A stretch of 64,000 nt of DNA from Candidatus Micrarchaeota archaeon (GTDB taxonomy: Archaea > B1Sed10-29 > JAJRYS01). The stretch lies in contig CAZXTN010000003.1 of NCBI GenBank assembly GCA_964643685.1, forward strand, positions 1-64,000. Reading direction: 5' to 3'. The position numbers were made by a program, and so were the translations under genes. Of the stretch, positions 5,929 through 63,820 are shown piece by piece; positions within the stretch are counted from its first letter, which is position 1; every line of letters starts with the position of its first letter. Under the pieces are notes generated by a model. It saw nothing but the letters and a program-made list of their open reading frames with translations, was not told the DNA's origin and made no database searches.

Positions 5929-6037
5929 AAGGATTAAAAATAGTTATTATAATTTAAAACTTTGTTAATTAGGTAACTTTTTTTAAAAAAAGAGGACGTT
6001 ACACCTTTAAATTCTTAATTCTTTTTATTTTAAAACA

Positions 6038-6676
6038 ATGAATGAAAAAGAAATTCTTAAAATTTTAATAAAAGAATACGGCAAGCCGACTACTCAGTTG
6101 ATTCATAGAAATCCTTTCCAGCTGATGATTGCCACGATTTTGTCAGCCCAATGCACTGATGAAAGAGTCAACAAAGTAGCTCCAATTCTATTTAAGAAAT
6201 ATAAGACGCCTAAGGATTTTGCAAAAGCTGATTTGAATGACTTGAAAAGAATAATTAAGTCAACTGGGTATTACAATCAAAAAGCAAAGCGTCTGAAAGA
6301 ATCATCCAAAATGTTAGTTGAAAAATACGGAGGCAAAGTGCCTGAGTCAGTAGACGAGCTTGTTAAGTTGCCTGGCGTTGGGAGAAAAACAGCTAATATT
6401 ATAATCACGTATGGCTTGAAAGGAAACCAGGGCATAGCAGTTGATACTCACGTGCGCAGGGTAAGTTACAGGTTGGGTTTGACTGAAAGCAAAAACCCTA
6501 AAATTATTGAGCAGGATTTGATGAAAAAGTTTAATAAAAAAGACTGGCCTTTAATCAATTCACTGTTGGTATGGCACGGTAGAAAATATTGTAATGCGCG
6601 CAAGCCAAAATGCAAAGAGTGTCCATTAAACAAAATATGTCCAAAAAGAGGGCTGAGCGAAGCGAATGCCGTCTAG
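6038..6676 (+). CDS. nth: Endonuclease III
   Basis: LSAQCTDERVN, LPGVGRKTAN, AVDTHV, CxxxxxxCxxCxxxxxC FeS motif. Confidence 0.96.
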   Translation: MNEKEILKILIKEYGKPTTQLIHRNPFQLMIATILSAQCTDERVNKVAPILFKKYKTPKDFAKADLNDLKRIIKSTGYYNQKAKRLKESSKMLVEKYGGKVPESVDELVKLPGVGRKTANIIITYGLKGNQGIAVDTHVRRVSYRLGLTESKNPKIIEQDLMKKFNKKDWPLINSLLVWHGRKYCNARKPKCKECPLNKICPKRGLSEANAV

Positions 6677-6754
6677 CGATCCAACGGCTGGCCGTTGGCG
6701 CGTAAGCCAAAATGCAAAGAGTGTCCATTGAATAAGATATGTCCAAAAAAAGGA
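6596..6754 (+). repeat. 57-bp direct duplication of the nth 3' end flanking a hairpin cassette
   Basis: 6596-6652 vs 6698-6754, 6 mismatches; intervening CTGAGCGAAGCGAATGCCGTCTAGCGATCCAACGGCTGGCCGTTG. Confidence 0.9.
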
Positions 6755-6765
6755 GTTGAAAAAAA

Positions 6766-8142
6766 GTGAGTGAAGAAAAGTTGAATAGGGTAATTAATTT
6801 TAATCAATTAGTGATTTATGGTGTAGGGGTTATTCTCGGTGCTGGTATTTACGCCTTGATTGGAGAAGCTGCTGGAACAACTGGCCCTAGTTTGTGGATG
6901 AGTTTTTTGTTTGCTGCAATAGTTGCTTCTTTCACTGGATTAAGTTACGCTGAACTTAGTTCAATAAAACAGACAACTGCATCTGAATACATGTACGTCA
7001 AGCAAGGTTTTAAGAACAAAAGAACTGCTTTTATTGTCAGCTGGTTGATTAACATAGTTGACATTACTGCAATTACCACTGTATCTCTTGGTTTTGCTAA
7101 TTACTTTGTTGCTTTATTTTTTCCAAAATTAATTGACAAGGTTATCCTCAGCTTGTTTGAAATAACCTTAACCCCTGTCGTACTTGTTGCTTCTTTGCTC
7201 ATCCTTGCCTTGACTTTAATTAATTACATTGGAATAAAACAATCCGTAAACTTGAACATAATATTCACTTTAATTGAGTCAATTGGTTTATTAGTTATCA
7301 TCCTGCTTGGAGGCATTCACTTGGCTCAAGGAGGGCACGTGCCTAACTTGCTTGAAATGCCTTTTGGTTTTACAGGATTGTTCGGAGCAGTGGCTTTGAT
7401 TTTCTTCGCTTACCTTGGTTTTGAAGACCTGGCTAACTTAGGAGAAGAAGTAAAGGAAGCTAAGAAAAACATTCCAAAAGCAATCTTATTATCAATAGTA
7501 ATAACAACAATCATCTACGTTCTTGTTTCAATTTCAGCTGTAAGCATAATTCCATGGCAACAATTAGGCAATTCTCCTCAGCCACTTGCTGATGTTGCCA
7601 ATGCAAAACTCGGAGCAAAAGGAAGTTTTATGCTTTCTTTCATTGCCTTATTTTCAACTTTCAACACAGTGCTTATAATGATTACAGCTGTTTCAAGAGT
7701 CATTTATGGAATGGCAAAAGATAATTCCTTGCCTAAATTTTTAGCAAAAGTAAGCAGAAAAAGAAAAACACCTGTAAATGCCTTAATTGCAGTTGCTTTA
7801 ATAGCAATTGCAGCTTCTTTCATGAAGGACATTGGAGAAGTAGCTGAGCTTACAACACTTGGAGTGTTTATTGTTTTTGGAATGATAAACGCTTCCTTAA
7901 TTAAAATAAGGTTAAGTAATGAAAAATTACCTGAAGACAGGTTCAAAACTCCTTTCAACATAGGCAGATTTCCTTTAATTCCTTTTTTTGGGTTGCTTTC
8001 AAGCATTTGGATGATTGGAACCTACCTCGTGAAAAACACTGCAAGTGGACTGCAGGTTAATTTATTAAATCCCTCAGTAATAATAGTAATCATTGAGATA
8101 ACACTGGGAATAATTGCTTTTGAACTGCTTAAAAGGAGATGA
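6766..8142 (+). CDS. APC-family amino acid permease
   Basis: GVGVILGAGIY, SYAELSS, FFAYLGFE..EEVK, SRVIYGMA; about 12 TM. Confidence 0.92.
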   Translation: MSEEKLNRVINFNQLVIYGVGVILGAGIYALIGEAAGTTGPSLWMSFLFAAIVASFTGLSYAELSSIKQTTASEYMYVKQGFKNKRTAFIVSWLINIVDITAITTVSLGFANYFVALFFPKLIDKVILSLFEITLTPVVLVASLLILALTLINYIGIKQSVNLNIIFTLIESIGLLVIILLGGIHLAQGGHVPNLLEMPFGFTGLFGAVALIFFAYLGFEDLANLGEEVKEAKKNIPKAILLSIVITTIIYVLVSISAVSIIPWQQLGNSPQPLADVANAKLGAKGSFMLSFIALFSTFNTVLIMITAVSRVIYGMAKDNSLPKFLAKVSRKRKTPVNALIAVALIAIAASFMKDIGEVAELTTLGVFIVFGMINASLIKIRLSNEKLPEDRFKTPFNIGRFPLIPFFGLLSSIWMIGTYLVKNTASGLQVNLLNPSVIIVIIEITLGIIAFELLKRR

Positions 8143-8149
8143 AGAAAAA

Positions 8150-8371
8150 ATGAATACAAGAAGACAAGTAAACGCGCCGGCAATCGGCTTGATAACTTCA
8201 ATTCTTTATTTGCTCGTATTTAGTTTTTCAAGGTTTATTTTGACAAAAGAACCATTCAACTGGAATGAAGCTTTGCTAGGAGCAGTTATCTTCGGATTAA
8301 TTTTTTTCACAATACAACACACAATAAACTTAAAAATAGGCGAAAAACCAGTGTTCTTAAGCAGAATATGA
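8150..8371 (+). CDS. Small two-TM membrane protein
   Basis: Two hydrophobic segments; follows the permease; SD-like AGGAGA. Confidence 0.55.
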   Translation: MNTRRQVNAPAIGLITSILYLLVFSFSRFILTKEPFNWNEALLGAVIFGLIFFTIQHTINLKIGEKPVFLSRI

Positions 8372-8414
8372 AACACCATAAGGTTTATAAACGTCAATAA
8401 TTAGTAAAATAAGC

Positions 8415-8532
8415 GCTGGCGACCACAGCGGAAGGGAAACACCTGGTAACATTCCGAACCCAGAAGTTAAGCCTTCCAGCGATTCGGCGTGTACTGAATT
8501 TATATTCGGGAAAACCGAGACGTTGCCTAGCA
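8415..8532 (+). rRNA. rrf: 5S rRNA (unlinked)
   Basis: GGCGACCACAGCG..ACACCTGG..CATTCCGAACCCAGAAGTTAAGCC..GTACTG..GGGAA..GTTGCC; own TATA (GTTTATAAA ~8383). Confidence 0.93.
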
Positions 8533-8586
8533 TTCTCTACTATAACATAGTAGAGAAGAACTTTCTTTATTTCTTTCTAAAAAAAG

Positions 8587-8784
8587 TTATTTCACTAGCT
8601 CTATTAATTTTTTAGCTATTTCCATGTGTCCTTTTTCCTGGTCTCTTATTAAAGAAAACATTTCAATCAATTCTTTATCATTTAATCTTTCAATATAATT
8701 GGAATAGAGGTTGAATGCTTTTGTTTCCATTTCCAGCAAATGAACAAAAGGATCAATTGTAACTGCAGTGTGTTTAATACTCAT
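8587..8784 (-). CDS. Small two-helix ferritin-like/rubrerythrin half-domain protein
   Basis: LEMETKAFNLY..IRDQEKGH (E..ExxH). Confidence 0.65.
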   Translation of the reverse strand: MSIKHTAVTIDPFVHLLEMETKAFNLYSNYIERLNDKELIEMFSLIRDQEKGHMEIAKKLIELVK

Positions 8785-9013
8785 TTTTATCACTTTTTAA
8801 AATACTTTGCTTGGCTTCTGTTATCATCTTGTAGTGATTCAAGCTTTGTTCTTCAAGCAACTTAAGCAATTCTTCTGCTTGAAGCTGTTTTTCTTTTGGC
8901 AGCTTGTATTCAAGTATTTTTTGCCCTAAGAGGTAGCCTAGTTCAGGCAGGAAGCTTTCTTCTAATTCAATTGCTTCATCAAGCATTTTAATAACTTCTT
9001 GTTTTGAAACCAT
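8774..9013 (-). CDS. Small two-helix ferritin-like protein (degenerate)
   Basis: LDEAIELEE..LEEQSLNH; overlaps the downstream half-ferritin gene. Confidence 0.5.
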   Translation of the reverse strand: MVSKQEVIKMLDEAIELEESFLPELGYLLGQKILEYKLPKEKQLQAEELLKLLEEQSLNHYKMITEAKQSILKSDKNEY

Positions 9014-9113
9014 TGAAGTAAAAAAAAGAGGTTCTGGTTTTTAAAGAAAACGCTTAAATAAAAACAGTGCTTTTAGAAAATTAAAATACTTGAAAAAGAA
9101 GGTGGTTTTTGAA

Positions 9114-9620
9114 ATGAAGAACTTGTTGATTGTTTTAAGCTTGGTTGCAGTTGTTTTTTTAGCTGGTTGCATTCATAAAACAGCTCCTGAACATTCTTTT
9201 GAGGGAATTGATTGTGGCAGTGACACTGTGTGTTTTGCAAGTAATTTAGCTAAATGTAATCCAGCTAAGATTCAAGTAAGCCAAAATGTTAATGGAATGA
9301 ATGCTGTTTTTTACATGGATATTCAAGGAGGAACTGTGGATTCATGTGAAATTTATCAGCAGGTTAAGTCAATTGAGTTTCCTGAGAACATGAGTCCGGT
9401 TGAGAAAATGGCTGCGCAGTTAATGATTGGAGCTGATTCAACTTGCATTGGTCCTGTTGACAAGCTTAAAACAGGCAGTTTTGAGGAGTATGAAAAATAC
9501 TTTAATTGCAGTGGAACTTTGTATGAGTTAATGAAAGCAGGGAGTCAGCAGGTGGAGCAGGTAGTTGATAATACATCTGGGTATGAAGAAGAAGGGAGAA
9601 AAACATTAAACCCTAACTAA
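9114..9620 (+). CDS. Cys-rich predicted lipoprotein
   Basis: Signal ending FLAGC; DCGSD..CF....C pattern; SD GGTGG. Confidence 0.7.
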   Translation: MKNLLIVLSLVAVVFLAGCIHKTAPEHSFEGIDCGSDTVCFASNLAKCNPAKIQVSQNVNGMNAVFYMDIQGGTVDSCEIYQQVKSIEFPENMSPVEKMAAQLMIGADSTCIGPVDKLKTGSFEEYEKYFNCSGTLYELMKAGSQQVEQVVDNTSGYEEEGRKTLNPN

Positions 9621-9884
9621 AAACAATTCAACTTCTTTAAAAAAAGAGGACTTTATGTCCTCTGCCAATCCAATCAGTTTACAAGAGCCTTTACTCGCGT
9701 AAACTTCAGACGACCGTTGGGTAGGAAAATATTAAATTGCAAGAATAAATGGCATCGAGCTTAAGCGAAGATGGCATAGCGATCCAACGGCTGGCCGTTG
9801 GGGAGAAAAACATTAAACCCAACACTAAATTAAGGTAAAACAAGAGTTTTTAGAGGTCATCAAAGGCGAAGCTGAAGATGGCCT
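9594..9884 (+). repeat. Hairpin cassette cluster with 20-bp gene-end duplication
   Basis: GGGAGAAAAACATTAAACCC at 9594-9613 and 9801-9820; 25 bp (9777-9801) identical to 6674-6698; 9847-9884 homologous to the reverse complement of 23127-23165. Confidence 0.85.
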
Positions 9885-9897
9885 AATTATATTTCTT

Positions 9898-11451
9898 TCA
9901 TTTTCCAAATTCGTATACTATTGGCTTGGTTTCTGTTGAGAAGTTTTCAAGTATTACTTTGTCCATTTCAATAGCTGTTCTTTTGTCAAAAACTTCTTTA
10001 GCTGCTTGCAGTTTTCTTTTGCTTTCAGCGTATATTGTCATTAGCTTGTCTCCTTTTTTTACCTTGTCCCCTTTTTCAAAATACATGTAAACTCCAGCTC
10101 CCTTGTCTTTAGGAGCGCCTGCAACTCTTGCAATTTCACTAATGACTTTGTTATGAATCAAATGAATCCTTCCATTCTCCTTAATGTAAATATCAAGCTT
10201 ATGCTGTCCTATTTTCACATCCTCTGGCTTAATGTCAGGGTTTCCTCCTTGCGCTTTAATTATTTCTTTCATTTTTTCCAAAGCCCTTCCATCTTCAAGG
10301 ATTTCCTGAGCCATTTTCTTGCCTTCTCCTTCTTTAGCAACGCCAGCCATTTCCAGCATCAACCCAGCCATTACAAGAGACTTGTCAATTAAGTCAAGGC
10401 TTACTTTTTCACCATAGAGAATTCTTAAAATTTCCCTTGCTTCTAAAGCAGGTCCAATTGCAAACCCTATAGGGTCATACCCTGGTGTGATGATGCAATG
10501 AACTTCCATGCCAAGCTTGGAACCTAAATCCATGAAATCTTTGGCAAGTGACTCAGCTTCTGAATGCGAAGCCATTTTAGAACCAACTCCAACTGGAATG
10601 TCAATTAGAACATGAGTAGCTCCAACAGCCTTCTTTTTTGCAAGGATTGATGCTAAAAGAACTCCACGGGGATCCATTTTTAAAGGGTGTCTTATTTTAA
10701 TCAGCTTGTCATCAGCAGCAGCGAGGTTAACTCCCCCTCCCCAAACCATGCATGCATTTGTTTTTTTAACTACTTTTTCAATTTTATGAGCAGGCAAGCT
10801 TACAGGAGCTAGCACTTCCATTGTATCAGCTGTTCCAGCAGGTGAAGTGATTGCTCTTGAACTTGTTTTAGGAACAGTTATTCCAGCAGCTGCTAAGATA
10901 GGCACAATAAGCATTGTTGTCCTGTTTCCAGGCACCCCTCCAATGCAATGCTTGTCTAAAATAGGCTTTTTTTTAAAATTCAAAGTTCTTCCTGAATCAA
11001 CAATTGCTCTTGTTAAAAACAAAGTTTCTTTGTTACTCAATCCTCTTATGTACATTGCTGTGATAAAAGCAGCGAGTTCAGCGTCACTTAATTCTTCATC
11101 CATCACGCCTTTAATAATTTCCCTTATCTCACTTTCAGTTAATTCAAAGCCATCCATTTTCTTTTTAATGAATTCAATGGAAGCTGGTTTAGGCACTGGC
11201 TCAATGCTTATCTTTTGCCTTGGTTTAAGTTTAAGCTTCTTGCTGATTCCTCTGAATAACCCAATTTCTCCTCTTTTAATTGAAGAATCGCTTAATTCAA
11301 CAAGAGCAATTTGTGATTTTGAATGGTCTCTGACTTCAACCCTGTCCATTACACTTAAGTTCAAGTCAATTGCATCTTCTTTATTCATTACAATGATGCT
11401 TTTTCCACCTGAATCCATGTCCAAATTCTTGTATTTGAATTCATACTTCAC
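9898..11451 (-). CDS. AMP phosphorylase
   Basis: N-terminal double-psi-like domain, DKHCIGGVPGNRTT, KTSSRAITSPAGTAD, GAPKDKGAG. Confidence 0.95.
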   Translation of the reverse strand: MKYEFKYKNLDMDSGGKSIIVMNKEDAIDLNLSVMDRVEVRDHSKSQIALVELSDSSIKRGEIGLFRGISKKLKLKPRQKISIEPVPKPASIEFIKKKMDGFELTESEIREIIKGVMDEELSDAELAAFITAMYIRGLSNKETLFLTRAIVDSGRTLNFKKKPILDKHCIGGVPGNRTTMLIVPILAAAGITVPKTSSRAITSPAGTADTMEVLAPVSLPAHKIEKVVKKTNACMVWGGGVNLAAADDKLIKIRHPLKMDPRGVLLASILAKKKAVGATHVLIDIPVGVGSKMASHSEAESLAKDFMDLGSKLGMEVHCIITPGYDPIGFAIGPALEAREILRILYGEKVSLDLIDKSLVMAGLMLEMAGVAKEGEGKKMAQEILEDGRALEKMKEIIKAQGGNPDIKPEDVKIGQHKLDIYIKENGRIHLIHNKVISEIARVAGAPKDKGAGVYMYFEKGDKVKKGDKLMTIYAESKRKLQAAKEVFDKRTAIEMDKVILENFSTETKPIVYEFGK

Positions 11452-11514
11452 TTAACATCAAACTCCTATTTCACTTCTTTTTAAAAATAACATGCTTAAT
11501 CTTTAAAAAACATT

Positions 11515-11808
11515 TTAAACAAACTTCTCCAACGCTTGCTTCACAGTCATTTTGTCATTAACACCTAAACTCAAAGCTTTTTTACTGACAAAATCAACTT
11601 TTTTCAAAATCATTTCAGCAATTGACTTAACTCCCTTGACCTGAACACAAGCATCTCCAAGTTCATCTGCAACTTTTGAATTAAAATAACCGCATACTGC
11701 ATAGCCTTTATCTGCTTTTATCAGCAGGAAAGGCGCGTTGCCCAAGTCAATCTTTACCCCCACTGCAATGCCGTTGCTTAAATCAATTATTTCAGTTTCA
11801 GAAATCAT
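11515..11808 (-). CDS. YunC/DUF1805 family protein
   Basis: APFLLIKADKGYAVCGYFN..VKGVKS..VSKKALSLGV. Confidence 0.8.
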   Translation of the reverse strand: MISETEIIDLSNGIAVGVKIDLGNAPFLLIKADKGYAVCGYFNSKVADELGDACVQVKGVKSIAEMILKKVDFVSKKALSLGVNDKMTVKQALEKFV

Positions 11809-12658
11809 TGAACATCCACTTCTTTTTCCTTAAAATCAAGTCAGGAAAAGAGTCGATTGAAAACACCCCCAAATCACTTACAGTGAAATCAACATACTCC
11901 TTTGGAGTGAAGTCAAAAGCAGGATTCACCACCTTGATATTTTTTACTCTTGTCTTCCACACTTCGCTTGGCTTCCTCTGTTCAATTTCCTCATTATACC
12001 CATCAATTGTAAAAGGGTCAAATTTCAAGGATTCAAAAGCAGATGCGAAAGTCGTTCTTGCTTCGTCAGCTGCAAGGGCAAGCAAAGAAGTTCCAACTTT
12101 GTTAACCAAGTAACTGTCACTTGTAATGGCATCAGCTCCTACAAGAACCAAGTCAGCATCATTTACAAACAACCTCATTGCAGAGTCAACGTAACTGGTT
12201 ACAGGAATGCCATAAGACGCTAACTGCTTTGCTGTTATCCTGCCTTGAAAAAGAGGACGGGTTTCAGATGAAAAAACTTCCTCAATCTTACCTTTGTCAA
12301 ATGCTTTTTTAATTATCTCAGCTACAAGCGAAGAATGACAGTGCGTCATTACAATTGAATTTCTTTTTATTTTTCTTGCGCCGAATTCAACTGCTTTTTG
12401 AAAACTGTCTTCAATCATCTCTTCAAACTCGTCAACTGCTTCTTCAATTGAGTAACCATCATCAATTTTATAACTCACATACCTCAAGCCATTTCTAAGC
12501 ATGGGTTCAGTTGCTCTTATTTTAAAAAAAGCAGAAGAAGCTTTCTTGTAAGTCTTATAATCCAATCCTTTCAAGGACTTCAAAGCAGTTAAAGCAACAT
12601 TAGTCGCGCCTTGAATCTTAAGGCTTTTTATATCCTTCAAAGTTTTCAAGTAATTCAT
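11798..12658 (-). CDS. Ribose-1,5-bisphosphate isomerase (eIF2B-like)
   Basis: IQGATNVA, MTHCHSS (catalytic Cys), ETRPLFQG, VGADAI, NKVGT, NPAFDFTP; adjacent to AMP phosphorylase. Confidence 0.88.
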   Translation of the reverse strand: MNYLKTLKDIKSLKIQGATNVALTALKSLKGLDYKTYKKASSAFFKIRATEPMLRNGLRYVSYKIDDGYSIEEAVDEFEEMIEDSFQKAVEFGARKIKRNSIVMTHCHSSLVAEIIKKAFDKGKIEEVFSSETRPLFQGRITAKQLASYGIPVTSYVDSAMRLFVNDADLVLVGADAITSDSYLVNKVGTSLLALAADEARTTFASAFESLKFDPFTIDGYNEEIEQRKPSEVWKTRVKNIKVVNPAFDFTPKEYVDFTVSDLGVFSIDSFPDLILRKKKWMFNDF

Positions 12659-13719
12659 AATCTTAACACTCTTTTTACATATTTATTTTTAAGCAGTTCA
12701 GCCATTTGCTTAAAAGCAAGCACGTCCCTCATTTTAACAACTCCAACCAGCTCGCCTTTTTCAACAACAGGCAACATGGGAACACCTGCTTTTTCCATTT
12801 CATGCAATGCTTTTTCAGCTGAATCACTTGGCTTCAGCACAGGCACTTTAAAAGAATTCTCTGCAATTGTCTTGCTTGCATCAACTACTTTTGACAAGTC
12901 AAACAAGTTCAAAGAACCTTTTACAATTGCAAAACTCCTGCGGTAAAAAAACATTTTGTCAACAACATCCTTTACAACCTCTTCTCCGTCAGCAACTAAA
13001 AAATCAGTTGATAAAAGACGTGAAACTTTCACTTTCTTCAAGTAAATAGAATCCATCAAAGCCCTGTATTCTCCGCTTGCACCTATGAAAATAAACCCTG
13101 CTATTAAAAGAAGCCAGAAATCAAAAGCAAGTAAAGAATAGACAACCATAAGCCCTGCAATTGCAAAACTCACATTCCTGGCAATAAAAGTTGCTTTTTC
13201 TCTTGTTGTCTTAAGCGAAAGCACTGCCCTGAATATCCTGCCTCCATCAAGAGGAAAAGCAGGCAGGAACAAGTTGAAACTACCGAGCACGAGATTAGCG
13301 TAAAAAGAATAGTAAATTAAAAGAGGAAAAGAAAGGCTCATTTCATTAATCACTTTGAAAGCATTTTCAAAAGGAAGCTGAAGCAAGTGCATTGAAAAAA
13401 TAAGCAAGTAGCACATTAAGAAATTGAAAAGAGGACCTGCTACAGCCACCGCCACTTCCTTCACTGGCTTTATTTTTTTAATATCCATCAAAGCCATTCC
13501 TCCTATTGGAAGAAGAACAATTTTGTCTACTCTTATGCCAAGGTGTTTGGCTACAAGAGAATGTGAAAATTCATGGAGAGTGACAAAAACAAACACTGTT
13601 AACAGAAGCAATGCAAAAGTTGAGTCAAGAAGGAAAAGGATTAAAATGAAAAAAACAAAGCTTATGTGGGCTTCAACAGGTATCCCGAACAAAGAAAGTA
13701 ATTTATAAGAAGGCTTCAT
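12655..13719 (-). CDS. Site-2 protease (M50) with CBS domains
   Basis: LHEFSHS, LLPIGG, AGPLFN, FNLFLPAFPLDGGR; C-terminal CBS pair. Confidence 0.92.
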   Translation of the reverse strand: MKPSYKLLSLFGIPVEAHISFVFFILILFLLDSTFALLLLTVFVFVTLHEFSHSLVAKHLGIRVDKIVLLPIGGMALMDIKKIKPVKEVAVAVAGPLFNFLMCYLLIFSMHLLQLPFENAFKVINEMSLSFPLLIYYSFYANLVLGSFNLFLPAFPLDGGRIFRAVLSLKTTREKATFIARNVSFAIAGLMVVYSLLAFDFWLLLIAGFIFIGASGEYRALMDSIYLKKVKVSRLLSTDFLVADGEEVVKDVVDKMFFYRRSFAIVKGSLNLFDLSKVVDASKTIAENSFKVPVLKPSDSAEKALHEMEKAGVPMLPVVEKGELVGVVKMRDVLAFKQMAELLKNKYVKRVLRL

Positions 13720-55358: not shown

Positions 55359-55367
55359 GTTTTTAAT

Positions 55368-56696: not shown

Positions 56697-57338
56697 TCAT
56701 CTTTTTTTCAGAAGCTTAGCTAGTTTTGAAAACCTGTCGCTTGCATCTTCTTTTTTTGTCTTCTCCTGTTTTTCTTGGTTTTTTGAAAGTGTTTTTTTAA
56801 TTTCATCATTTTCTGATTTTGCCTTGTTTAAAAGCTGAGCCATTGAAGAATCTTTTGCAATTGTTTTAGTTAACCCGAATTTTTTAAACAAGTCTTCTTT
56901 TTGAATGCCTTCTCCTGATTCTTCAGCAAGCTGTTTTTCATAATCTTCTTTGAAGTAATTCAGTATTTTTAAATTTTCTTTGTCTACTGCTTGTTTCAGG
57001 TTGTTCTCTTCATTTAAAGTGAGAATCAACTGCACTTGATAAGAATTGAGTGAAAACAAGTCAATCACACCTATTTTTGCATTCAAGGCATTCAAGCTTC
57101 TTTCAAGAGCTTCTTCTGCTAAAAAGCTTTTGTTAAACTTGTAATAATCATAGTTAGAGGAGACAATTTTGCCGTTGCTGAATACGACTATTCCTTCTTC
57201 TAAACCTTGTTTTCCATGAATGGTTATGCAGAAATACCCGTTGAAGCTTTCATCCATTAATTTTTTCACGTACTGCGCAGGCACAATGCTTGCCAATTCT
57301 TTTCCTGTTTCAACAGGGCTTCCAGCAGACAATTTCAT
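56697..57338 (-). CDS. DUF2226-family protein
   Basis: FNGYFCITI.G..GLEEGIVVF.NGKIV; L....N; EDLFKKFGL. Confidence 0.75.
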   Translation of the reverse strand: MKLSAGSPVETGKELASIVPAQYVKKLMDESFNGYFCITIHGKQGLEEGIVVFSNGKIVSSNYDYYKFNKSFLAEEALERSLNALNAKIGVIDLFSLNSYQVQLILTLNEENNLKQAVDKENLKILNYFKEDYEKQLAEESGEGIQKEDLFKKFGLTKTIAKDSSMAQLLNKAKSENDEIKKTLSKNQEKQEKTKKEDASDRFSKLAKLLKKR

Positions 57339-57374
57339 TTTAAAAAAAACAACTCCCTTAAATTTTCTTTTAAT

Positions 57375-57836
57375 TTACTTCAATTTAGTGATTGTTTTCT
57401 TGTTGAACACGAGGATGTGGTCAGCTGTGTTTTTCAAAGCAGCTGCAATCGGCTCGCTTCCAACGACAATTGTTTCCTTACCATGCTCCTTTGCCTTGGA
57501 CACAACAGGATGAAAGTCAGAATCGCGTGTCATCAAGGCAATCACATCAATGTGTTCATTGAAAACATACTCCATTGCCTCAGCAGCCATAGGTGCATCC
57601 ACGTCATCACTAGTGACTATTACAGGCTCAAAACCTTGATTGACAACAGCTTCAATTAACTTATCAGGCGCAAACTGGTTTAAGAAAATTTTAGATACTG
57701 TCAAGTTGCCGAATTTCTCCAGCTCGTTCCTAATAATGTTTAAGTCAACGTCAAACTCTTTCCTAAGCATGTTAGGACCGTCAACGAAAAAAGCAATTTT
57801 CTTAACTTCATTTTTTCTTTTTCCAAAACCAAACAT
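57375..57836 (-). CDS. NYN-domain protein (TIGR00288-like)
   Basis: FVDGPNMLRKEF, DVD, TRDSDF.P, AL.NTAD. Confidence 0.92.
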   Translation of the reverse strand: MFGFGKRKNEVKKIAFFVDGPNMLRKEFDVDLNIIRNELEKFGNLTVSKIFLNQFAPDKLIEAVVNQGFEPVIVTSDDVDAPMAAEAMEYVFNEHIDVIALMTRDSDFHPVVSKAKEHGKETIVVGSEPIAAALKNTADHILVFNKKTITKLK

Positions 57837-57860
57837 TTCAAAAACCAAACTCCTTCTTGC

Positions 57861-58613
57861 TTAAATTTTCAAATCAAATGCCTTGACTGTATTTTTTTCA
57901 GTTGCCTTGCTTGCTTCTTCAAAAGTTATTCCCAGTTCAGATGCAATTAAAGCAATTAATTCGCTTACATTAACAGGCTCGTTCCTCTCCTTTCTGTTGA
58001 AAGGGTTCAAGTAAGGCGAATCAGTTTCAGTAAGCAAGTAATCTAACTCAATTTCCTTAATTAAATCTTTGGTTTTTCTTGAATACAACGCTTTCGTAGT
58101 TACACCTATGAAAAACCCGTTGTCAACAGCTCTTTTAATCAAATCGCTTGAAGCTTCAAATGAATGCATTATCACTTGCGTAGCTGCCCCCCTTTCAGCC
58201 ATTTTCAAAGCATCTTCCTCTGCATTTCTAGAATGAATTACAAGGGGCTTGTTCAAATCATTAGCCAATTCAATGAACTTCGTGAAATTTTCTTTTTGCC
58301 TGCCATGATTTTCCTTGTCCCAGTAATAATCCAGCCCAACTTCTCCGACAGCAACCATCTTTTCATGATTCTCTTCAATGAAAGAAATCACTTGACTTAA
58401 CTTGCTTTCTCTCAAAGTAGTAATAGGTCCTAAGCCGAAGCAGGGAAATACAAAACCAAGGAACTCTTCGCTTATTCTTAAATTCTTTTCATTTGAAGCA
58501 AGAGAATCAGACAAGGTAATTACTGCCGAGAGTTTCTGCTTGGCTCTCTCAATAACTTCAATTAAGTCACTGTTGAAACTTGAGTCATCTAAATGTGAAT
58601 GCGAGTCAATCAT
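57861..58613 (-). CDS. tatD: TatD-family nuclease
   Basis: IDSHSHL, GEVGLDY, IHSR, MHSF, ETDSPY, RNEP. Confidence 0.95.
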   Translation of the reverse strand: MIDSHSHLDDSSFNSDLIEVIERAKQKLSAVITLSDSLASNEKNLRISEEFLGFVFPCFGLGPITTLRESKLSQVISFIEENHEKMVAVGEVGLDYYWDKENHGRQKENFTKFIELANDLNKPLVIHSRNAEEDALKMAERGAATQVIMHSFEASSDLIKRAVDNGFFIGVTTKALYSRKTKDLIKEIELDYLLTETDSPYLNPFNRKERNEPVNVSELIALIASELGITFEEASKATEKNTVKAFDLKI

Positions 58614-58671
58614 TAATTTAAATTAAAACAGTTTAAGTATTTATAAAGGATTTAAGAGTAATTGATTAACT

Positions 58672-59706
58672 ATGAATATTAAAAAACTTACAATCACAAG
58701 CTTGCTGATAGGAGTGCTTGCTTATGCCTTGATTGGATTTGGCGTGGGCTTACCTGAAGTCATAAAAGCGCTTAAGAACGTCAAGTACGAGTACCTATTC
58801 TTAGCAGTGTTTGCTTATGCTTTCAGCTTGCTTATGATTACTCTCAGATGGAAGGAAATTACAAACAATGCTGGAATTAAAATAAGCACCTGGAAGCTTT
58901 ACTTAATGACTTTAGCTGGAGTGACTTTCAGCAACATTACACCAAGCTCCAGAATGGGAGGAGAGCCAATTAAAGCTTACTTTTTAAACAAGCATTCAGG
59001 AACTAAAATGAAAACAAGCTTTGCAACAATAGTAAGCGCCAGAATATTCGACGCAATAATCTTCATGCTTGTATCAATAATCGTTCTAAGCTACTCAGTA
59101 ATAAACTTGACTCTTCCAAAATACGTCAGCATACTGCTAATAATTTCCCTTGCAATATCAGTTGGAATAATATGGTTCATTGTATACGTGTCAGTTCAGC
59201 CAAAAGCAGCTGAGTCAATAGCAATATGGTTCATCAGAAAATTCAAAAGATTTTCAAAAACACTAAGGACAGAAGGATTTGAAAACAAGATAAAGAAAGA
59301 AATAAAAGAATACTCAGAGAACATGAACAAATTCCTTAAAACAAAAAAACTTTGGATAACCTGCTCAACTTACACTATCCTAATGTGGTTTTTTGACGTG
59401 CTTAGAATGTACTTGATTTTCTTCGGATTAGGATTGAACACCAACCCAATGATGCTTTTAATGGTCCTTGTACTATCCGGACTGGTTGGAGGAATACCTG
59501 TTTTCCCAGGAGGCATAGCAGTTACTGAATCAACAATGATAGTGGCATACAACGCCTTTCAAATACCATTAGCAGTAGCAGGAATAGCAACAATACTAGA
59601 CAGAATGGTTTACTTCTGGCTTTATACTTTCCTCGGACTCATCGCAGCTTACAAACTCGGAATAAAAAAATACGAAAAAGAACAATCAAAAAACAAAGAG
59701 TTTTAA
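58672..59706 (+). CDS. Lysylphosphatidylglycerol synthase TM/flippase-like protein (UPF0104)
   Basis: RW..NITPSSRMGGEP.KAY, R.FD, PGG....E, DR. Confidence 0.88.
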   Translation: MNIKKLTITSLLIGVLAYALIGFGVGLPEVIKALKNVKYEYLFLAVFAYAFSLLMITLRWKEITNNAGIKISTWKLYLMTLAGVTFSNITPSSRMGGEPIKAYFLNKHSGTKMKTSFATIVSARIFDAIIFMLVSIIVLSYSVINLTLPKYVSILLIISLAISVGIIWFIVYVSVQPKAAESIAIWFIRKFKRFSKTLRTEGFENKIKKEIKEYSENMNKFLKTKKLWITCSTYTILMWFFDVLRMYLIFFGLGLNTNPMMLLMVLVLSGLVGGIPVFPGGIAVTESTMIVAYNAFQIPLAVAGIATILDRMVYFWLYTFLGLIAAYKLGIKKYEKEQSKNKEF

Positions 59707-59797
59707 ATAATCAAAACAATTATAAAAAAAGACCAAGTTAATAAAAAACAAGGAAACATCAAAAAAAAATTAAAAACAGCAATCGGAGGATGTTTAA

Positions 59798-60193
59798 ATG
59801 TCAGTTACAGTTGGACAAGTAAAAGACTTGAAAGAAGGAAGGTACGTCGTAATAGATGGAGAACCATGCAAAATAACTTCTATTCAAAAATCAAAGCCAG
59901 GTAAACACGGCTCAGCAAAAGCAAGAGTCGAAGGAGTATCCTTATTCAGCGGAAGCAAAAAAACACTTTTGAAAAGCGTTGACTCCTCATGCGAAATACC
60001 AGAACTCCTAAGAAAAAAAGCACAAGTAATAGCAAACCTTGGGGGAAACAGGCTTCAATTAATGGACTTGGAAACCTACGAAACATACGAAATTGACGTG
60101 GACCCAGAATACGCTGACTTGCAATCAGGCAGAGAAGTAGAAGTCCAAGAAATCATGGGAAGAAGATTCTTGACTCATGCCAAAAAGGAATAA
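59798..60193 (+). CDS. eif5a: Translation factor aIF5A
   Basis: SKPGKHGSAKAR, QLMDLETYET. Confidence 0.97.
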   Translation: MSVTVGQVKDLKEGRYVVIDGEPCKITSIQKSKPGKHGSAKARVEGVSLFSGSKKTLLKSVDSSCEIPELLRKKAQVIANLGGNRLQLMDLETYETYEIDVDPEYADLQSGREVEVQEIMGRRFLTHAKKE

Positions 60194-60613
60194 TAGCTCT
60201 TCAAAATTATTTTTTCTTTTAGGGCGTGTTTTTCTTTTCCACAGGGTACACAGAAAAAGAAAAAGCGCGACGGAGGTTCCTAACACACGCAAAGAAAGAA
60301 TAAGACTTTCTTCAAACTTACTTTTTTCTTATTTTTTCAAAACCAGCTCCTTTTTTACTTGAACAAACACCCTATTAGCTTTATTCGTGTATTCAGGGCT
60401 TTTGACACCCCCTTACTTCCAGTATTCGGCGCTGAGAGATTTTTTCAGGAAATAAAAGCTTCTCCGGGCTTTTCGCTTCAAAAAAAGCTGGTAAAACAGG
60501 TTTTTTGATTGAATTTTCCTTTTTCTAGCTTTGTTTAAACTGGTTTTAACTTGCTAGTGTTTGAAAATTATTAAATTAAAATAAAATTTCAACAAAACTA
60601 AAACAAGCAAGTT

Positions 60614-60657
60614 AGTTAACATTATAAGTTAACTTTATATAGTTTGGAACTTATAAT
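60614..60657 (+). promoter_or_regulatory. TATA box flanked by inverted repeats (TA operator)
   Basis: AGTTAAC-N7-GTTAACT (60614-60634); ATTATAAGTT (60621-60630) and AACTTATAAT (60648-60657) around TTTATATA. Confidence 0.6.
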
Positions 60658-60975
60658 ATGAAAAAAATTGAATTAATAAAAGAACTTTCATTGCCTGAAA
60701 GTACAAGCAACAAAATAAAACTAAGAAAAAAGATATTTATTGAAAAATCAAAAGTGAAGCAGTTTGCTGTCCAACTTGAAATTGAACAAGATAATAAATT
60801 CAAGCCAATAATAAGATTTGACGCTTATCATGGCTTTGTTCACAAAGATGAATTTTTCAAAAACAGGCCTAAGAAAAAAACAAAAATTGCTATAGAAAAT
60901 TTGAAGGAAGCAGTGGATTTGGCTGAAAAAGATTTGTTAGAAAATCTTGAAATGTATGTGAGGAGATTTGAATGA
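60658..60975 (+). CDS. Putative toxin (DUF7718/TumE-like)
   Basis: FAVQLE..IIRFDAYHGFVHKD motif; overlaps the downstream HTH gene. Confidence 0.6.
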   Translation: MKKIELIKELSLPESTSNKIKLRKKIFIEKSKVKQFAVQLEIEQDNKFKPIIRFDAYHGFVHKDEFFKNRPKKKTKIAIENLKEAVDLAEKDLLENLEMYVRRFE

Positions 60976-61316
60976 AAAAAGCGAAAGAAGAGATAAAGGA
61001 TTTTTTCAAACTCGGCAGAAAAATAATAGAAAACCCTGAACTTGCTGAAACAATGCCAAGTGAAATTTTCATTCCCTCGGGAGTCAAAATTTCTGAAATA
61101 CTCTCAGAGAAAAGAATAGAACTACTTAGTTTAATTGCCAAACAGCCAAACAAAACAATTAATGAACTTTCAAAAGCGACAAAAAGAAAAAAAGAAGCAA
61201 TTAGCAGAGACATTAAATTTCTTAAAAAACACAACTTAGTTGAAACAAAAAAAAGAGGAAGGGAAAAACAAGTTAAAACAAGCATTAAATATGTATTAAT
61301 TCCGATTTCAAACTAA
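60972..61316 (+). CDS. wHTH putative antitoxin (HVO_A0114/TumA-like)
   Basis: LSEKRIELL..TINELS....R....ISRDIKFL....LV....GREK. Confidence 0.7.
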   Translation: MKKAKEEIKDFFKLGRKIIENPELAETMPSEIFIPSGVKISEILSEKRIELLSLIAKQPNKTINELSKATKRKKEAISRDIKFLKKHNLVETKKRGREKQVKTSIKYVLIPISN

Positions 61317-61323
61317 AAAGAAA

Positions 61324-61758
61324 TCAATTCCCCCCTTTTCTTTTCTTAAGCTTTGGAGTAACATAAGGCAATTTTTTCATTTGAAGGTTTTTCAGCACAA
61401 AAACAGTTGGTGCTTCTTCATCAAAACCGTATTTCTCAAACAATTTCCTTGCAGCTGGCGAAACAGAATTTAAAAAAACAGTTTCAACTCCTTTCTTTTT
61501 CAAGTCATCCAAAACCTTCACTAAATTAACTTCAGCTATTTTCTGTCCTCTGAATTCTTCTAGTGTTTCAACATTTTCCAAATAAGCAGTTTTCTGCTCC
61601 TTTGGATAAATGTAATACCTTAAAAAACCAGCTTCTTTCCTTCCTCCCTGCGTGTTAAGGTAAAGAGTCCTTTTCTTCTCCACATAACCATCTTTAGTTT
61701 TCCTTGATTTAACACTAAAACCAAACAACTTTCTCTTACGCATTGACTCACTAGCCAT
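61324..61758 (-). CDS. GNAT acetyltransferase
   Basis: VET.EEFRGQKIA, V.L.S...A..LFEKYGF. Confidence 0.8.
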   Translation of the reverse strand: MASESMRKRKLFGFSVKSRKTKDGYVEKKRTLYLNTQGGRKEAGFLRYYIYPKEQKTAYLENVETLEEFRGQKIAEVNLVKVLDDLKKKGVETVFLNSVSPAARKLFEKYGFDEEAPTVFVLKNLQMKKLPYVTPKLKKRKGGN

Positions 61759-61819
61759 TACTTTCAATTAAGCAAAAGAAGTTATTTAAAACTAATTAAA
61801 ACTCCTCAAAAAAAGCTTT

Positions 61820-62287
61820 TTACTGTTGCTTTTTCTTAACTCTTAAAACAAGAGGGATCTTCTTCTCCTGCAAGTTTTCAATAACCAAAGGGCCTCCTCT
61901 TTTTGATTTTCTTGTAAAGCCAAAATCTTCATACATTTTTTTAGCCATGTCAGTTGGATACAAAGCAACAAAATTAACCCCCTTAGCTTTCAAATCAACA
62001 AGAGTCTTATACAAATTAAAAGAAGCTACTTTCCTCCTCCTCTCGCTTGGAAAAGTATCCACGTGAATAATATAAGAAGTATTATCAGGATTAATAACAT
62101 ACTCAATCGAACCAATTACCCTACCATTTTCCTTAATCTGCCTTTTTTTAACAACAGAACCATCTTCAACTTCATACTTTCTAACACTCTGCCTAAACAT
62201 CTTGCTTTTTCCAGCTTGTTTTGAATACTTAACAGCATCAGCAGCTGAATTCTTCCTAACCCTTCCAGGAACCTTTTTATTAACCAT
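61820..62287 (-). CDS. GNAT acetyltransferase (paralog of the neighbour)
   Basis: VDT.PSERRRKVA, V.L.P...A..MYEDFGF; shares NL.K.L.DLK.KGV and NLQ.KK.P with 61324-61758. Confidence 0.78.
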   Translation of the reverse strand: MVNKKVPGRVRKNSAADAVKYSKQAGKSKMFRQSVRKYEVEDGSVVKKRQIKENGRVIGSIEYVINPDNTSYIIHVDTFPSERRRKVASFNLYKTLVDLKAKGVNFVALYPTDMAKKMYEDFGFTRKSKRGGPLVIENLQEKKIPLVLRVKKKQQ

Positions 62288-62356
62288 AATACTTTTTAAT
62301 AAGCAAAAATAACTATTTAAAATTAATTAAAAAAAAGCATGCAGAGTTTGAAAAAA

Positions 62357-63820
62357 ATGGCTGACGACATAAAATTCAACAAGAAAAAAAACAAAGACTT
62401 CTCAGAATGGTACTTTGAACTCTTAAAAGCAGCTGACGTCATAGACCAAAGATACCCAGCAAAAGGATTCATAGTCCACAAAGAAATAGCTGCAATAGCA
62501 GAAAGAGAAATGTACAAATTATTTGAAAAAGAACTAGACAAAACAGGACACAAAATGATGAGATTCCCAGCAGTCATACCAGAATCAGTATTTGCAAAAG
62601 AAGTGGAACACATTGAAGGATTCACACCAGAAGTGTTCTGGATAGAAAAAGGAGGCAACGACGAACTCCCTGAAAAAATGGGACTACGTCCAACCTCAGA
62701 AACAGCCATGTACACAATGTACTCAAAATGGATAAGAAGCTACAGAGACCTCCCACTCAAAGTTTACCAAGAAGCGCAAGTATGGAGATACGAAACCAAA
62801 CACACCCGTCCTTTACTCAGAGACAGGGAATTCTACTGGATAGAAGCGCACAACGTCTTCGCTTCAAGAGAAGAAGCTGAAAAACAAGTAACAGAAGACA
62901 TGAACATCACAGAAAAAGTGCTACATGAACAACTAGGCATACCCTTCCTATTCTTCAAGCGCCCTGAATGGGACAAATTCAACGGAGCAGAATACACTTA
63001 CGGCGCAGACGTGCTAATGCCAAACGGCTTAGTAATACAACAGCCATCAACCCACTTCCTAGGGCAAAATTTCTCAAAAGCATATGACATAAAATTCCTA
63101 GATGAAGACGAAAAAGAAAAATACGCGTGGCAAACATGCTACGGCCCGGCAATATCAAGAATACTCTCATCAGTAATCGCACTGCACGGCGACGACAAAG
63201 GACTAATCTTCCCATGGAACATCGCGCCATACCAAGCAGTAATCATACCAATCTACAAAAAAGACACAGACAAAGAAGCAATAGAAAACAACTGCAAAGA
63301 ACTGCAAAAACAATTGATTGAAAAAGGAGTTAGAGCAGAAATTGATTTAAGCGAAAAACGCCCAGGAGCAAAGTACTACTATTGGGAATTAAGAGGAGCA
63401 TGCATAAGAATAGAAATCGGCGCAAGAGAAGTAGAAAACAAAGAACTTACAATCGCAAGAAGAGACACAGGAGAAAAAATAAAAATAAAACAAGAAGAAC
63501 TAGACGCTTACCTTGAAAAACTCCCAAAAGAAATAATTAAAAATTTGAAAACAAAAAGAGACGAAGAATTCAAAAACGCGTTGCACGAAGCAAACTCACT
63601 TGAAGAATTGAAAAAAGAGTTGGACAAAGGAGGATTCGTTAAAATCAACATTTGTTCAAGAGACACTGACGGAGAACAATGCGCCGATGTCATAAAAGCA
63701 GAAACCAACGGCGGAGAAGTAAGAGGAACACTCCACGGCAAAGAAGAAAAGCCAACAGGAAACTGCATAATATGCGGCAAAAAAGCAAACGCAGTAGTAT
63801 ACGTAGCAAAATCATATTAG
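62357..63820 (+). CDS. proS: Prolyl-tRNA synthetase, archaeal/eukaryotic type
   Basis: LRPTSET, RYETKHTRPLLRDREF, HFLGQNFSKA, HGDDKGL, C-terminal ..AKSY. Confidence 0.97.
   Translation: MADDIKFNKKKNKDFSEWYFELLKAADVIDQRYPAKGFIVHKEIAAIAEREMYKLFEKELDKTGHKMMRFPAVIPESVFAKEVEHIEGFTPEVFWIEKGGNDELPEKMGLRPTSETAMYTMYSKWIRSYRDLPLKVYQEAQVWRYETKHTRPLLRDREFYWIEAHNVFASREEAEKQVTEDMNITEKVLHEQLGIPFLFFKRPEWDKFNGAEYTYGADVLMPNGLVIQQPSTHFLGQNFSKAYDIKFLDEDEKEKYAWQTCYGPAISRILSSVIALHGDDKGLIFPWNIAPYQAVIIPIYKKDTDKEAIENNCKELQKQLIEKGVRAEIDLSEKRPGAKYYYWELRGACIRIEIGAREVENKELTIARRDTGEKIKIKQEELDAYLEKLPKEIIKNLKTKRDEEFKNALHEANSLEELKKELDKGGFVKINICSRDTDGEQCADVIKAETNGGEVRGTLHGKEEKPTGNCIICGKKANAVVYVAKSY

Follow-up and report, generated by a model that had tools for sequence, protein, structure and literature searches.

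In Borrelia burgdorferi, a replication-associated strand asymmetry is accompanied by strand-specific codon usage, with two domains per replicon switching at origin and terminus. Known transcription-associated asymmetries, as in enterobacteria and mammals, make the sense strand G/T-rich, the mammalian N-domains ('factory roof') show many polarity changes per molecule, and head-on conflicts between replication and transcription raise the mutation rate of head-on genes in Bacillus subtilis. Here we analyse a stretch of 64,000 nucleotides (the window, positions 1-64000 of contig C3) from the metagenome-assembled genome (MAG) of a DPANN-type archaeon, Candidatus Micrarchaeota archaeon (the source genome, G000). 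We show this genome carrying a strong asymmetry of keto (G/T) versus amino (A/C) bases that is bound to the DNA strand and is set neither by the orientation of the carrier gene nor by codon selection or inversions. The asymmetry forms a field of irregular domains anchored on heavily transcribed, co-oriented gene blocks, expression being predicted from annotation, and it spreads beyond these blocks into genes of either orientation.

The field resembles the Borrelia burgdorferi type in being an A/C versus G/T asymmetry at synonymous and non-coding sites, strand-bound and overriding gene orientation, with codon usage being shifted and amino-acid usage less so. It differs in having 74 changepoints with amplitudes of 0-0.9 instead of two domains per replicon, in lacking a sharp switch at orc1, a feature displayed by another DPANN genome, G042, and in most genes having an A/C-rich sense strand, opposite to classical leading-strand genes. 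As in transcription-associated asymmetry, the largest amplitudes are found on the presumably most transcribed operons, but the sign is reversed, the sense strand being A/C-rich, and the skew reaches beyond transcription units into opposite-oriented neighbours and divergent spacers. Many polarity changes per molecule and a link of skew to gene orientation are shared with the N-domains, in contrast to which the source genome shows neither an abrupt-up/gradual-down asymmetry genome-wide nor regular spacing. The route that we propose below would join fork direction and transcription load as in the head-on mutagenesis of Bacillus subtilis, for which, to our knowledge, no field of base composition surrounding blocks of co-oriented operons has been described.

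For archaea, recent surveys describe the cumulative GC skew as tracking local gene-strand bias and strand-specific mutational skew as much reduced, with local deviations coming from gene orientation, and report third-position and non-coding skews opposite to gene-strand bias in Haloferax volcanii (Paravel et al. 2026, PMC12999951; Mottez et al. 2023, bioRxiv 10.1101/2023.11.15.567178). The sign relation in the source genome is the same as in Haloferax volcanii; unlike in these surveys, its four-fold and spacer skew is very strong and unexplained by the orientation of the carrier gene. According to two further studies, bacterial-type cumulative skew occurs in 18 of 224 RefSeq archaeal genomes (Chen et al. 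2020) and multiple polarity changes need not imply multiple origins (Xia 2012). No description of kilobase-scale, orientation-independent skew fields in DPANN archaea was found in the open-access literature searched. The source genome, and more weakly two sister genera, shows a synonymous-site strand asymmetry among the strongest that can be expected, four-fold A varying from 18% to 74% between gene classes. This contrasts with the view, expressed in the surveys, that archaea barely make strand-specific mutational skews (PMC12999951; bioRxiv 10.1101/2023.11.15.567178). Such fields distort codon-usage-based prediction of expression, detection of foreign genes, GC-skew checks of MAGs and phylogenies built from biased genes.

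The assembly of the source genome comprises 695 kb in 12 contigs with 36% GC and is 91.75% complete. The window contains an archaeal gene set by Pfam (TFB, rpL15e, rpL10e, rpS8e, L37ae, Lsm, exosome subunits, proteasome alpha, aIF5A), and the closest relatives of its prolyl-tRNA synthetase (ProRS) are encoded in MAGs labelled as DPANN-type archaea. We scored third codon positions, and separately the four-fold degenerate ones, as keto or amino, and calculated the keto skew as (G+T-A-C)/N on the sense strand of each gene (s) and on the + strand (p). The cut-offs for strong genes and the segmentation penalties are arbitrary. Contig C8 (25.8 kb) is a 99.95% identical copy of C1:75876-101373, reflecting redundancy in the assembly or the bin. 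Because of this copy, some 25 kb are counted twice in the spacer and codon-position, 86-segment, gene-jump, domain-coverage, within-gene-half, gene-boundary, orientation-regression and initial junction-spread statistics, while the dispersion, the neighbour correlations and the counts of 34 and 40 steps were recomputed without it; dispersion and neighbour statistics refer to the 548 remaining genes with at least 40 four-fold sites. For comparison, we used G001 and G004 from sister genera (examined in part, 193 kb and 131 kb), G010 from another family of the same order, and G041 and G042 from other DPANN lineages.

The skew belongs to the DNA strand, because opposite-oriented neighbours anti-correlate, spacers share the skew of their surroundings and the skew shifts inside genes. 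Per-gene four-fold skew is over-dispersed with a standard deviation (SD) of 0.352 compared to a binomial expectation of 0.108. The sense skews of same-oriented neighbours correlate positively (r = +0.711, n = 385) and those of opposite-oriented neighbours negatively (r = -0.590, n = 152; the lowest of 2000 shuffles did not fall below -0.318), for divergent (r = -0.536, n = 72) as well as convergent pairs (r = -0.512, n = 80) and also if only genes validated by tblastn in relatives are considered (r = -0.487, n = 63). This supports the proposal of a preliminary description of the window, made by eye, that the bias is tied to the strand rather than to the gene. The codon strings quoted there are present in rpL15e (52711-52755, - strand), rpL10e (53711-53737, + strand) and Lsm (55146-55163, - strand), and the contrast between these genes was reproduced with third-position/four-fold sense skews of +0.24/+0.27, -0.59/-0.55 and -0.62/-0.52, respectively. 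We rejected a model in which each contig has one fixed strand term and each gene a sense term of its own, as the + strand skews of opposite neighbours stay correlated after subtraction of the 3-15 kb regional trend (r = 0.46, n = 151). The correlation of opposite pairs drops with distance, from 0.55 at less than 2 kb to 0.07 at 10-15 kb, and gene junctions yield an SD of 0.24 for the strand term and 0.13 for the sense term (sampling standard error 0.07). In a regression, the coefficient for a gene's own orientation is -0.03 and that for the orientation of its neighbours is -0.18. Independence of gene orientation, as claimed earlier, therefore holds for single genes, while regionally the field does correlate with gene orientation; the third-position skew is not explained by orientation and its changepoints are significant. 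Altogether 74 genes have a sense skew above +0.3, 45 of them tblastn-validated.

Several observations place the asymmetry at the level of DNA. At four-fold sites, GC skew varies together with TA skew (r = 0.535). Spacers are skewed like the sequence on either side of them (r = 0.64, p = 1.6e-23, n = 192, minimum length 80 nt), and this holds for the divergent, promoter-side ones as well (r = 0.65, n = 48). The first and second codon positions are also affected, with slopes of 0.19 and 0.08; since four-fold sites far exceed these positions, the skew has passed through purifying selection and is not a sequencing error. In 30 of 222 long genes the two halves differ in skew at |Z| > 3, and within the window the preliminary description had correctly seen such a flip in gene 33923-35083 (- strand; 5' half -0.14, 3' half +0.26, Fisher p = 0.0002). 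In composition, G/T-sense genes read on their antisense strand match equally skewed A/C-sense genes read on their sense strand. Across gene classes the four-fold composition changes from 0.74 to 0.18 for A, from 0.09 to 0.62 for T, from 0.11 to 0.07 for C and from 0.055 to 0.13 for G, with A+T staying near 0.8 and the purine content falling from 0.80 to 0.31; transitions alone are therefore insufficient. The T-rich strand, i.e. the complement of the sense strand in the most skewed genes, contains 74% T, 11% G, 9% A and 5.5% C at these sites and looks like a strand losing purines to T and C to T. Runs of at least five T number 319 in 73 kb of G/T-sense genes and 44 in 114 kb of A/C-sense genes, and they are not depleted compared to synonymous shuffles in any gene class (ratios 1.19-1.22), so that no selection at the RNA level is apparent. 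Our best reading is that strand-asymmetric mutation, not codon selection, made the field.

The anchoring on operons is most obvious in the most extreme domain, C1 116-157 kb, where p ranges from -0.6 to -0.9 and all genes are on the + strand, encoding RNA polymerase (RNAP) B/A'/A'', L30e, NusA, S12, S7, EF-2, EF-1alpha, S10, L3-L4-L2-S3, SecY and adk. The sense strand of the most skewed genes has 74% A at four-fold sites, and in domains with |p| >= 0.25 the A/C-rich strand is the sense strand for 206,928 of 290,611 coding bases (71%). A short + gene segment at C4:49254-50085 with +0.79 (G/T-rich sense) is the sole extreme domain departing from the rule that the extremes are A/C-rich on the sense strand. 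For the spread we analysed junctions of genes with s < -0.4 and opposite-oriented neighbours, reading the skew on the strand of the strong gene. Upstream (20 junctions), the skew averages -0.26 to -0.28 at 0-500 nt compared to a genome baseline of +0.22 and reaches about 0 by 2-3 kb, with 16/18, 16/18, 13/15, 5/12 and 7/15 junctions being negative in successive distance bins. Downstream (11 junctions), successive bins show -0.16, -0.15, -0.16 and -0.07; nine of the 11 spacers contain runs of at least five T on the strong gene's strand, and 10 of the 11 neighbours beyond keep the sign. The skew is thus not confined to the transcription unit; on either side it reaches some 3 kb into neighbours of opposite orientation, crossing terminator-like T-runs. 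The - strand genes flanking the rRNA operon (C2:38230-44052, + strand) carry the same sign, with -0.15 to -0.36 upstream, apart from one gene at +0.38, and -0.16 downstream. Within this operon, the 23S rRNA match (C2:40326-44052, + strand) spans 3727 nt compared to 2987 model positions and includes an open reading frame (ORF) at C2:42482-42979, making an insertion or intron possible.

Segmentation of the four-fold sites by likelihood divides the genome into 86 segments and places changepoints in the window at 16.7, 23.5, 29.2, 44.7, 50.1, 55.1, 56.4 and 58.9 kb. The domains of the window, with p from the four-fold sites unless stated otherwise, are:

176..16725: weakly skewed (p = -0.07), with excursions at gene 9090-9620 (+0.31) and genes 11515-13776 on the - strand (-0.21 to -0.34)
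16731..23516: + strand with a strong A/C excess (p = -0.53; third positions taken together reach -0.72 over 20.9-23.5 kb); only + strand genes, including S8e, a P-type ATPase and Gar1; its left boundary falls within the gene of the Na+/H+ exchanger (15370-17091), close to where synteny with G004 breaks
23016..23100: tRNA-Leu, just left of the up-step at 23.5 kb
23528..29158: near-neutral to mildly G/T-rich (p = +0.04; +0.12 over 25.4-29.8 kb)
29161..44727: mixed, moderately A/C-rich + strand (p = -0.22), with sub-steps at 30.9, 32.7, 36.5, 39.2, 41.0 and 43.7 kb
33923..35083, - strand, within the preceding domain: glycosyltransferase gene with the internal skew change
44733..50074: + strand rich in G/T (p = +0.32; +0.49 if every third position is counted); exclusively - strand genes with A/C-rich sense, which make up the exosome superoperon's distal half (Rrp4, Rrp41, Rrp42, L37ae, prefoldin beta, PRC-barrel)
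50080..55137: + strand rich in A/C (p = -0.25); proximal superoperon half on the - strand (SBDS, proteasome alpha, Rpp30, rpL15e) with G/T-rich sense strands, as well as rpL10e and gene 54131-54718 on the + strand; gene order conserved in G004; the 50.1-kb flip occurs within SBDS
55140..56405: + strand with a strong G/T excess (p = +0.65); - strand genes encoding Lsm and a MinD/ParA-type ATPase, followed in coordinates by gene 56183-56641 on the same strand; the step at 55.14 kb is the largest of the window (+1.09 at third positions) and adjoins an intron-sized tRNA (54884-54995, - strand)
56420..58926: transition domain (p = -0.10); DUF2226, NYN and TatD genes on the - strand, whose sense ranges from neutral to G/T-rich and passes into the next domain without a break at the divergent promoter at 58.6 kb (junction 58642: R = -0.25)
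58941..64000: A/C-rich + strand (p = -0.44), the start of a 19-kb domain reaching 77.9 kb of C3; aIF5A and ProRS on the + strand (sense -0.5 to -0.6)
61324..62287, - strand, embedded in the preceding domain: GNAT genes with sense skews of +0.44 and +0.53 (junction 62313: R = -0.57)

The shape of the field differs in several respects from the sawtooth with a flip about every 10 kb reported in the preliminary description. The changepoints themselves are significant, with eight in the window at four-fold sites and 19 steps at all third positions, the latter being eight up (mean 0.53) and 11 down (mean 0.44). Four of the seven jumps proposed by eye match up-steps (23.1 kb at 23.5 kb, 32.5-34.8 kb at 32.7 kb, 45.3 kb at 43.7/45.7 kb and 54.2-55 kb at 55.1 kb), and the other three do not: those at 8.5-9 and 14.7 kb stay below the penalties used, only gene 9090-9620 rising, to +0.31, and at 63.3 kb, where a jump had been considered possible, the + strand skew is constant at -0.67 to -0.75 over 62.1-64.6 kb. 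A drift toward A/C in + strand coordinates is mathematically the same as s falling along each co-oriented run; such falling is seen in eight of 10 co-oriented runs of the window, so that the sawtooth exists locally, while elsewhere 35 of 68 runs fall and 33 rise. The ~10-kb period was not recovered, as the genome-wide autocorrelation decays monotonically and a weak undulation of ~20 kb is seen only in the 64 bins of the window. With C8 removed, about 669 kb contain 74 steps, 34 up (mean 0.49) and 40 down (mean 0.46); internal segments measure 0.7-54 kb (median 5.6 kb) with means from -0.87 to +0.79, and domains with |p| >= 0.25 cover 337,852 of 676,706 bases. Gene-to-gene jumps are symmetric overall with a faint excess of negative small steps (230 versus 182 positive), and the 14 up versus six down steps with |d| > 0.6 are not a significant difference genome-wide. 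Changepoints are enriched at gene boundaries, 34% lying within 50 nt compared to 15% of random positions. A search for a motif shared by the 74 breakpoints yielded no convincing 8-mer, the best being present in 8/74 with about 0.01 after Bonferroni correction. A tRNA lies within 1 kb of 4/50 changepoints compared to 4% of random positions, a weak comparison given that only nine tRNAs were detected by ARAGORN.

Comparison with relatives shows the field being a trait common to two sister genera in weaker form and nearly absent in another family of the order. In G001 the SD is 0.283 with neighbour correlations of +0.67 (same orientation) and -0.53 (opposite orientation), and in G004 it is weaker still (SD 0.206; r +0.45 and -0.25). 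The skew is not an artefact of the method, because the same scripts applied to G010 (two contigs, 569 kb) yield almost none (SD 0.133 versus 0.108, r +0.10 and -0.13, 11 segments); the same operons there lack the bias, and the sense strand in G010 is weakly G/T-rich. Orthologue sense skews correlate between genera at about 55% amino-acid identity (G001 r = 0.53, n = 126; G004 r = 0.40, n = 65), so that a local conserved cause keeps regenerating the field, which is maintained and not a relic. Gene order in the region 44-78 kb of C3 matches that of G004:C6 and G001:C4, and relative orientations agree apart from rpL10e; since this block is collinear in two genera, the flips at 50.1, 55.1, 56.4 and 58.9 kb arose in situ and not by inversion. 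Between the halves of the exosome superoperon there is a difference of like direction in the source genome and, weakly, in G004. Of the changes, that at 16.7 kb alone is close to a break in synteny (G004, about 17.1 kb). Logan contigs of run X2, possibly the source sample, are identical to the window across the flips at 50.1, 56.4 and 58.9 kb; runs X3-X5 contain short matching pieces only. Among 62 scorable ProRS loci of other archaea, a few show strand-type (L065, L043) or sense-type skew (L038, L045). Thermophily was considered as a cause and rejected, reverse gyrase being below the cut-off in the source genome (above it in 2/41 genomes); labels of the runs as 'hydrothermal vent metagenome' are no evidence of growth temperature. 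Two further differences to G004 were observed: rpL10e (53384-53986, + strand) is turned round with respect to its neighbours, while in G004 it points the same way as Lsm and rpL15e, and a segment of about 25 kb (window ~17.1-41 kb) is missing from G004:C6, which joins the orthologues of genes 15370 and 41909, representing a rearrangement or an insertion/deletion between the genera.

The source genome encodes one orc1/cdc6 (C1:187515-188720). Across this locus p changes gradually, from +0.43 to -0.4 within about 10 kb and with no sharp flip, and genes diverge from that point; beside it no ORB-like repeats were found, only low-complexity T-rich matches. A check for orc1/cdc6 and ORB elements, proposed together with the idea of many origins, thereby revealed a single initiator gene with a gradual change of skew. 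In G042 (G042:C18), p flips at orc1 from about -0.2 to +0.2 to +0.46 and holds for 14 kb regardless of gene orientation, and in G041 it steps from -0.35 to -0.1 at orc1; the polarity of both is classical, the leading strand being G/T-rich. The strong operons of the G000 family have the sign opposite to the weak G/T-rich sense in G010. A difference in the polymerase set was rejected as a cause, as PolB and PolD are both present in all five genomes checked (G000, G001, G010, G041, G042). Uracil-DNA glycosylase (UDG, PF03167) and endonuclease V (EndoV) were both not found in the source genome (91.75% complete), and a simple repair-gene cause was rejected as well, since the presence of UDG/EndoV does not track amplitude among G000, G001, G004 and G010. 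The gene of the PolD large subunit lies near orc1 in G000 (C1:178839-188720), G001:C1, G010:C2, G041:C7 and G042:C18, orc1 preceding PolD in G041 and G042 and PolD preceding orc1 in G000, G001 and G010; in G000 and G001 opposite-strand genes lie between the two.

We tentatively favour, at somewhat below even confidence, a strand-asymmetric mutational field that is anchored on heavy transcription and probably arises via replication-transcription conflict in a genome without a dominant fixed origin. What we observe is the field itself, together with its indifference to gene orientation, the places where it is anchored, the distance over which it spreads, its base signature and its conservation. 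According to the model, the transcription template strand of strong blocks would be driven T/G-rich, mainly by purine-to-T plus C-to-T changes, the sense strand turning A/C-rich, and the effect would fade over about 3 kb into both flanks regardless of the orientation of the genes there, which is why minority-orientation genes would end up with G/T-ending codons. Forks in the G000 family might not start from one dominant fixed origin, so that strong blocks would be met from both sides; head-on forks may stall, and the lagging-strand template then would be the same physical strand as the transcription template. This strand would stay single-stranded or damaged longer in and around the block, and depurination followed by insertion of A, together with cytosine deamination, might make it T-rich. 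The model keeps the classical chemistry, in which a strand left single-stranded becomes T/G-rich: chemistry of the type seen in G042 combined with prolonged exposure during head-on passage would yield the T/G-rich template strand in strong operons. Head-on passage would also account for the observed sign, an amplitude rising with transcription, the two-sided spread on the same strand and the indifference to local genes. Strand damage or exposure of single-stranded DNA (ssDNA), the latter considered in the preliminary description, agrees with the base composition observed (74% T, 11% G, 9% A, 5.5% C). The many closely spaced fixed initiation sites of that description are not supported. A stronger version, in which the field is the imprint of fork direction and stalling in a lineage that gave up a dominant origin in favour of dispersed, e.g. 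recombination-dependent, initiation, with strong operons acting as polar obstacles, appears to us unlikely, at about one half of the confidence given to the general model. If the field is such a record of fork-transcription encounters, synonymous sites would provide a map of fork directionality and conflict, and thereby a sequence-only handle on replication in unculturable organisms, e.g. uncultured DPANN archaea.

Several observations weigh against the conflict model. The rRNA operon, presumably the most transcribed one, has only moderate flank skews, one flanking gene being opposite (+0.38), and some strongly skewed genes are not obviously highly expressed (P-type ATPase, MinD-like ATPase, ProRS, CTP synthase), high expression of the anchoring operons being assumed from annotation. 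Convergent spacers do not track the field (r = 0.10, n = 30), and spacers in general are less skewed than four-fold sites (slope 0.36). On the side of repair, G004 has no UDG or EndoV hits and yet is weakly skewed, G001 encodes UDG and has intermediate skew, and G010 is without UDG and almost unskewed. The calibration of polarity rests on two other lineages, with G042 providing only about 1.5 kb left of orc1; the MAG is fragmented into 12 contigs, and genes were called by our own simple script using ORFs and codon scores. Stalling of head-on forks and replication without a dominant origin are inferences on our part.

As an alternative, net transcription alone might suffice, the skew reflecting the balance of transcription on both strands at each site, e.g. 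with template lesions shielded by stalled RNA polymerase in the lack of transcription-coupled repair and with the flanks arising from read-through and far-upstream antisense transcripts. We regard this as unlikely, though more probable than the other alternatives. In its favour, the extremes lie on the RNAP, ribosomal-protein and EF operons with an amplitude apparently graded with presumed expression, changepoints are enriched at gene boundaries (34% versus 15%), and the alike difference between the superoperon halves in G000 and, weakly, G004 could be explained by an internal promoter. However, the upstream spread into divergent neighbours (16/18 junctions) has no simple transcriptional cause, divergent spacers track the field (r = 0.65), the field persists past T-runs in 10/11 convergent neighbours, the skew changes inside 30/222 long genes, and a gene's own orientation adds almost nothing beyond that of its neighbours; moreover, the usual sign is a G/T-rich sense strand, as weakly seen in G010, and G000 shows the opposite. 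An improbable further reading retains replication and reverses polarity, with forks crossing strong operons almost only co-directionally and the leading strand being A/C-rich, operons acting as polar barriers or having initiation zones upstream, e.g. combined with error-prone bypass of leading-strand template lesions. This would account for the strand field, the bilateral flanks and the co-orientation (71% of coding bases) and would agree with the fall of skew from +0.43 to -0.4 across orc1 over about 10 kb with genes diverging there. It is also in line with third-position and non-coding GC skew in Haloferax volcanii being opposite to the bacterial pattern at an origin, as reported by Paravel et al. 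2026 (PMC12999951). It requires, however, a polarity opposite to that at orc1 in G042 and G041 despite PolB and PolD being present alike in G000, G001, G010, G041 and G042, a simple barrier predicts upstream spread only, and initiation would have to be very dense.

Dense initiation is also the core of the model advanced in the preliminary description, i.e. many close fixed origins or ssDNA-exposure sites producing a sawtooth like that of mammalian N-domains, which we consider quite improbable. Its basis is in the window, where eight of 10 co-oriented runs drift to A/C and eight up-steps (0.53) face 11 down-steps (0.44), and in the faint genome-wide excess of small negative steps (230 versus 182), large steps (14 up, six down) not differing significantly. 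Outside the window 35 runs fall and 33 rise, up- and down-steps (34 and 40) are equally abrupt and frequent and of equal size, and their spacing is irregular (0.7-54 kb) without periodicity. The field consists of bumps centred on heavily transcribed operons and is not antisymmetric around points, the shape expected from origins; the 74 breakpoints have no common motif, there is one orc1/cdc6 without ORB-like repeats beside it, and the proximity of changepoints to tRNAs is not significant (4/50 versus 4%, the test being weak with nine tRNAs). Exposure of the non-template strand in R-loops, a variant of this model, would produce the opposite sign. Marginally less probable still is selection on RNA or translation, in the form of purine or A loading, avoidance of U-tract termination or preferred A/C-ending codons. 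The 74% A in the sense strand of the operons predicted to be most expressed would fit, as would the match of A/C-ending codons to G- and U-starting anticodons. Selection for purine-rich sense strands is described for bacteria with runaway transcription (Dierksheide et al. 2026, PMC13323073). Such selection can yield neither 74 genes with sense skew above +0.3 (45 tblastn-validated) nor the anti-correlation of opposite neighbours, the skew of spacers and the mirror-image compositions; T-runs are undepleted compared to synonymous shuffles in every class, and the same operons in G010 lack the bias. As a sole cause selection is largely refuted, while it could add to the extremes. The least probable explanation, to which we give hardly any weight, is a historical or technical patchwork of inversion or gene-transfer relics on an ordinary two-replichore skew, or of assembly chimeras. 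The changepoint at 16.7 kb near the G004 synteny break (~17.1 kb), the inverted rpL10e and the redundancy of the MAG (C8 duplicating C1:75876-101373) would suit it; against it stand the flips at 50.1, 55.1, 56.4 and 58.9 kb within a block collinear in two genera, the correlation of orthologue skews at about 55% identity, where saturation of synonymous sites would be expected, the excess of four-fold skew over positions 1 and 2 (slopes 0.19 and 0.08), unlike sequencing error, and the X2 contigs bridging the flips at 50.1, 56.4 and 58.9 kb without differences.

The window contains some further elements. The tRNA at 54884-54995 (- strand, 112 nt) was found by Rfam and missed by ARAGORN, which was run without intron search and reported only nine tRNAs in the whole assembly; this tRNA probably contains an intron. 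Three small PRC-barrel genes (about 80 aa, - strand) are present at 35154-35393, 45679-45924 and 45944-46180, the last two being adjacent at the distal end of the superoperon. At the start of the contig (171-1396, + strand), an AbiEi antitoxin-like gene is followed by an AbiEii nucleotidyltransferase toxin gene, forming a type IV toxin-antitoxin pair.

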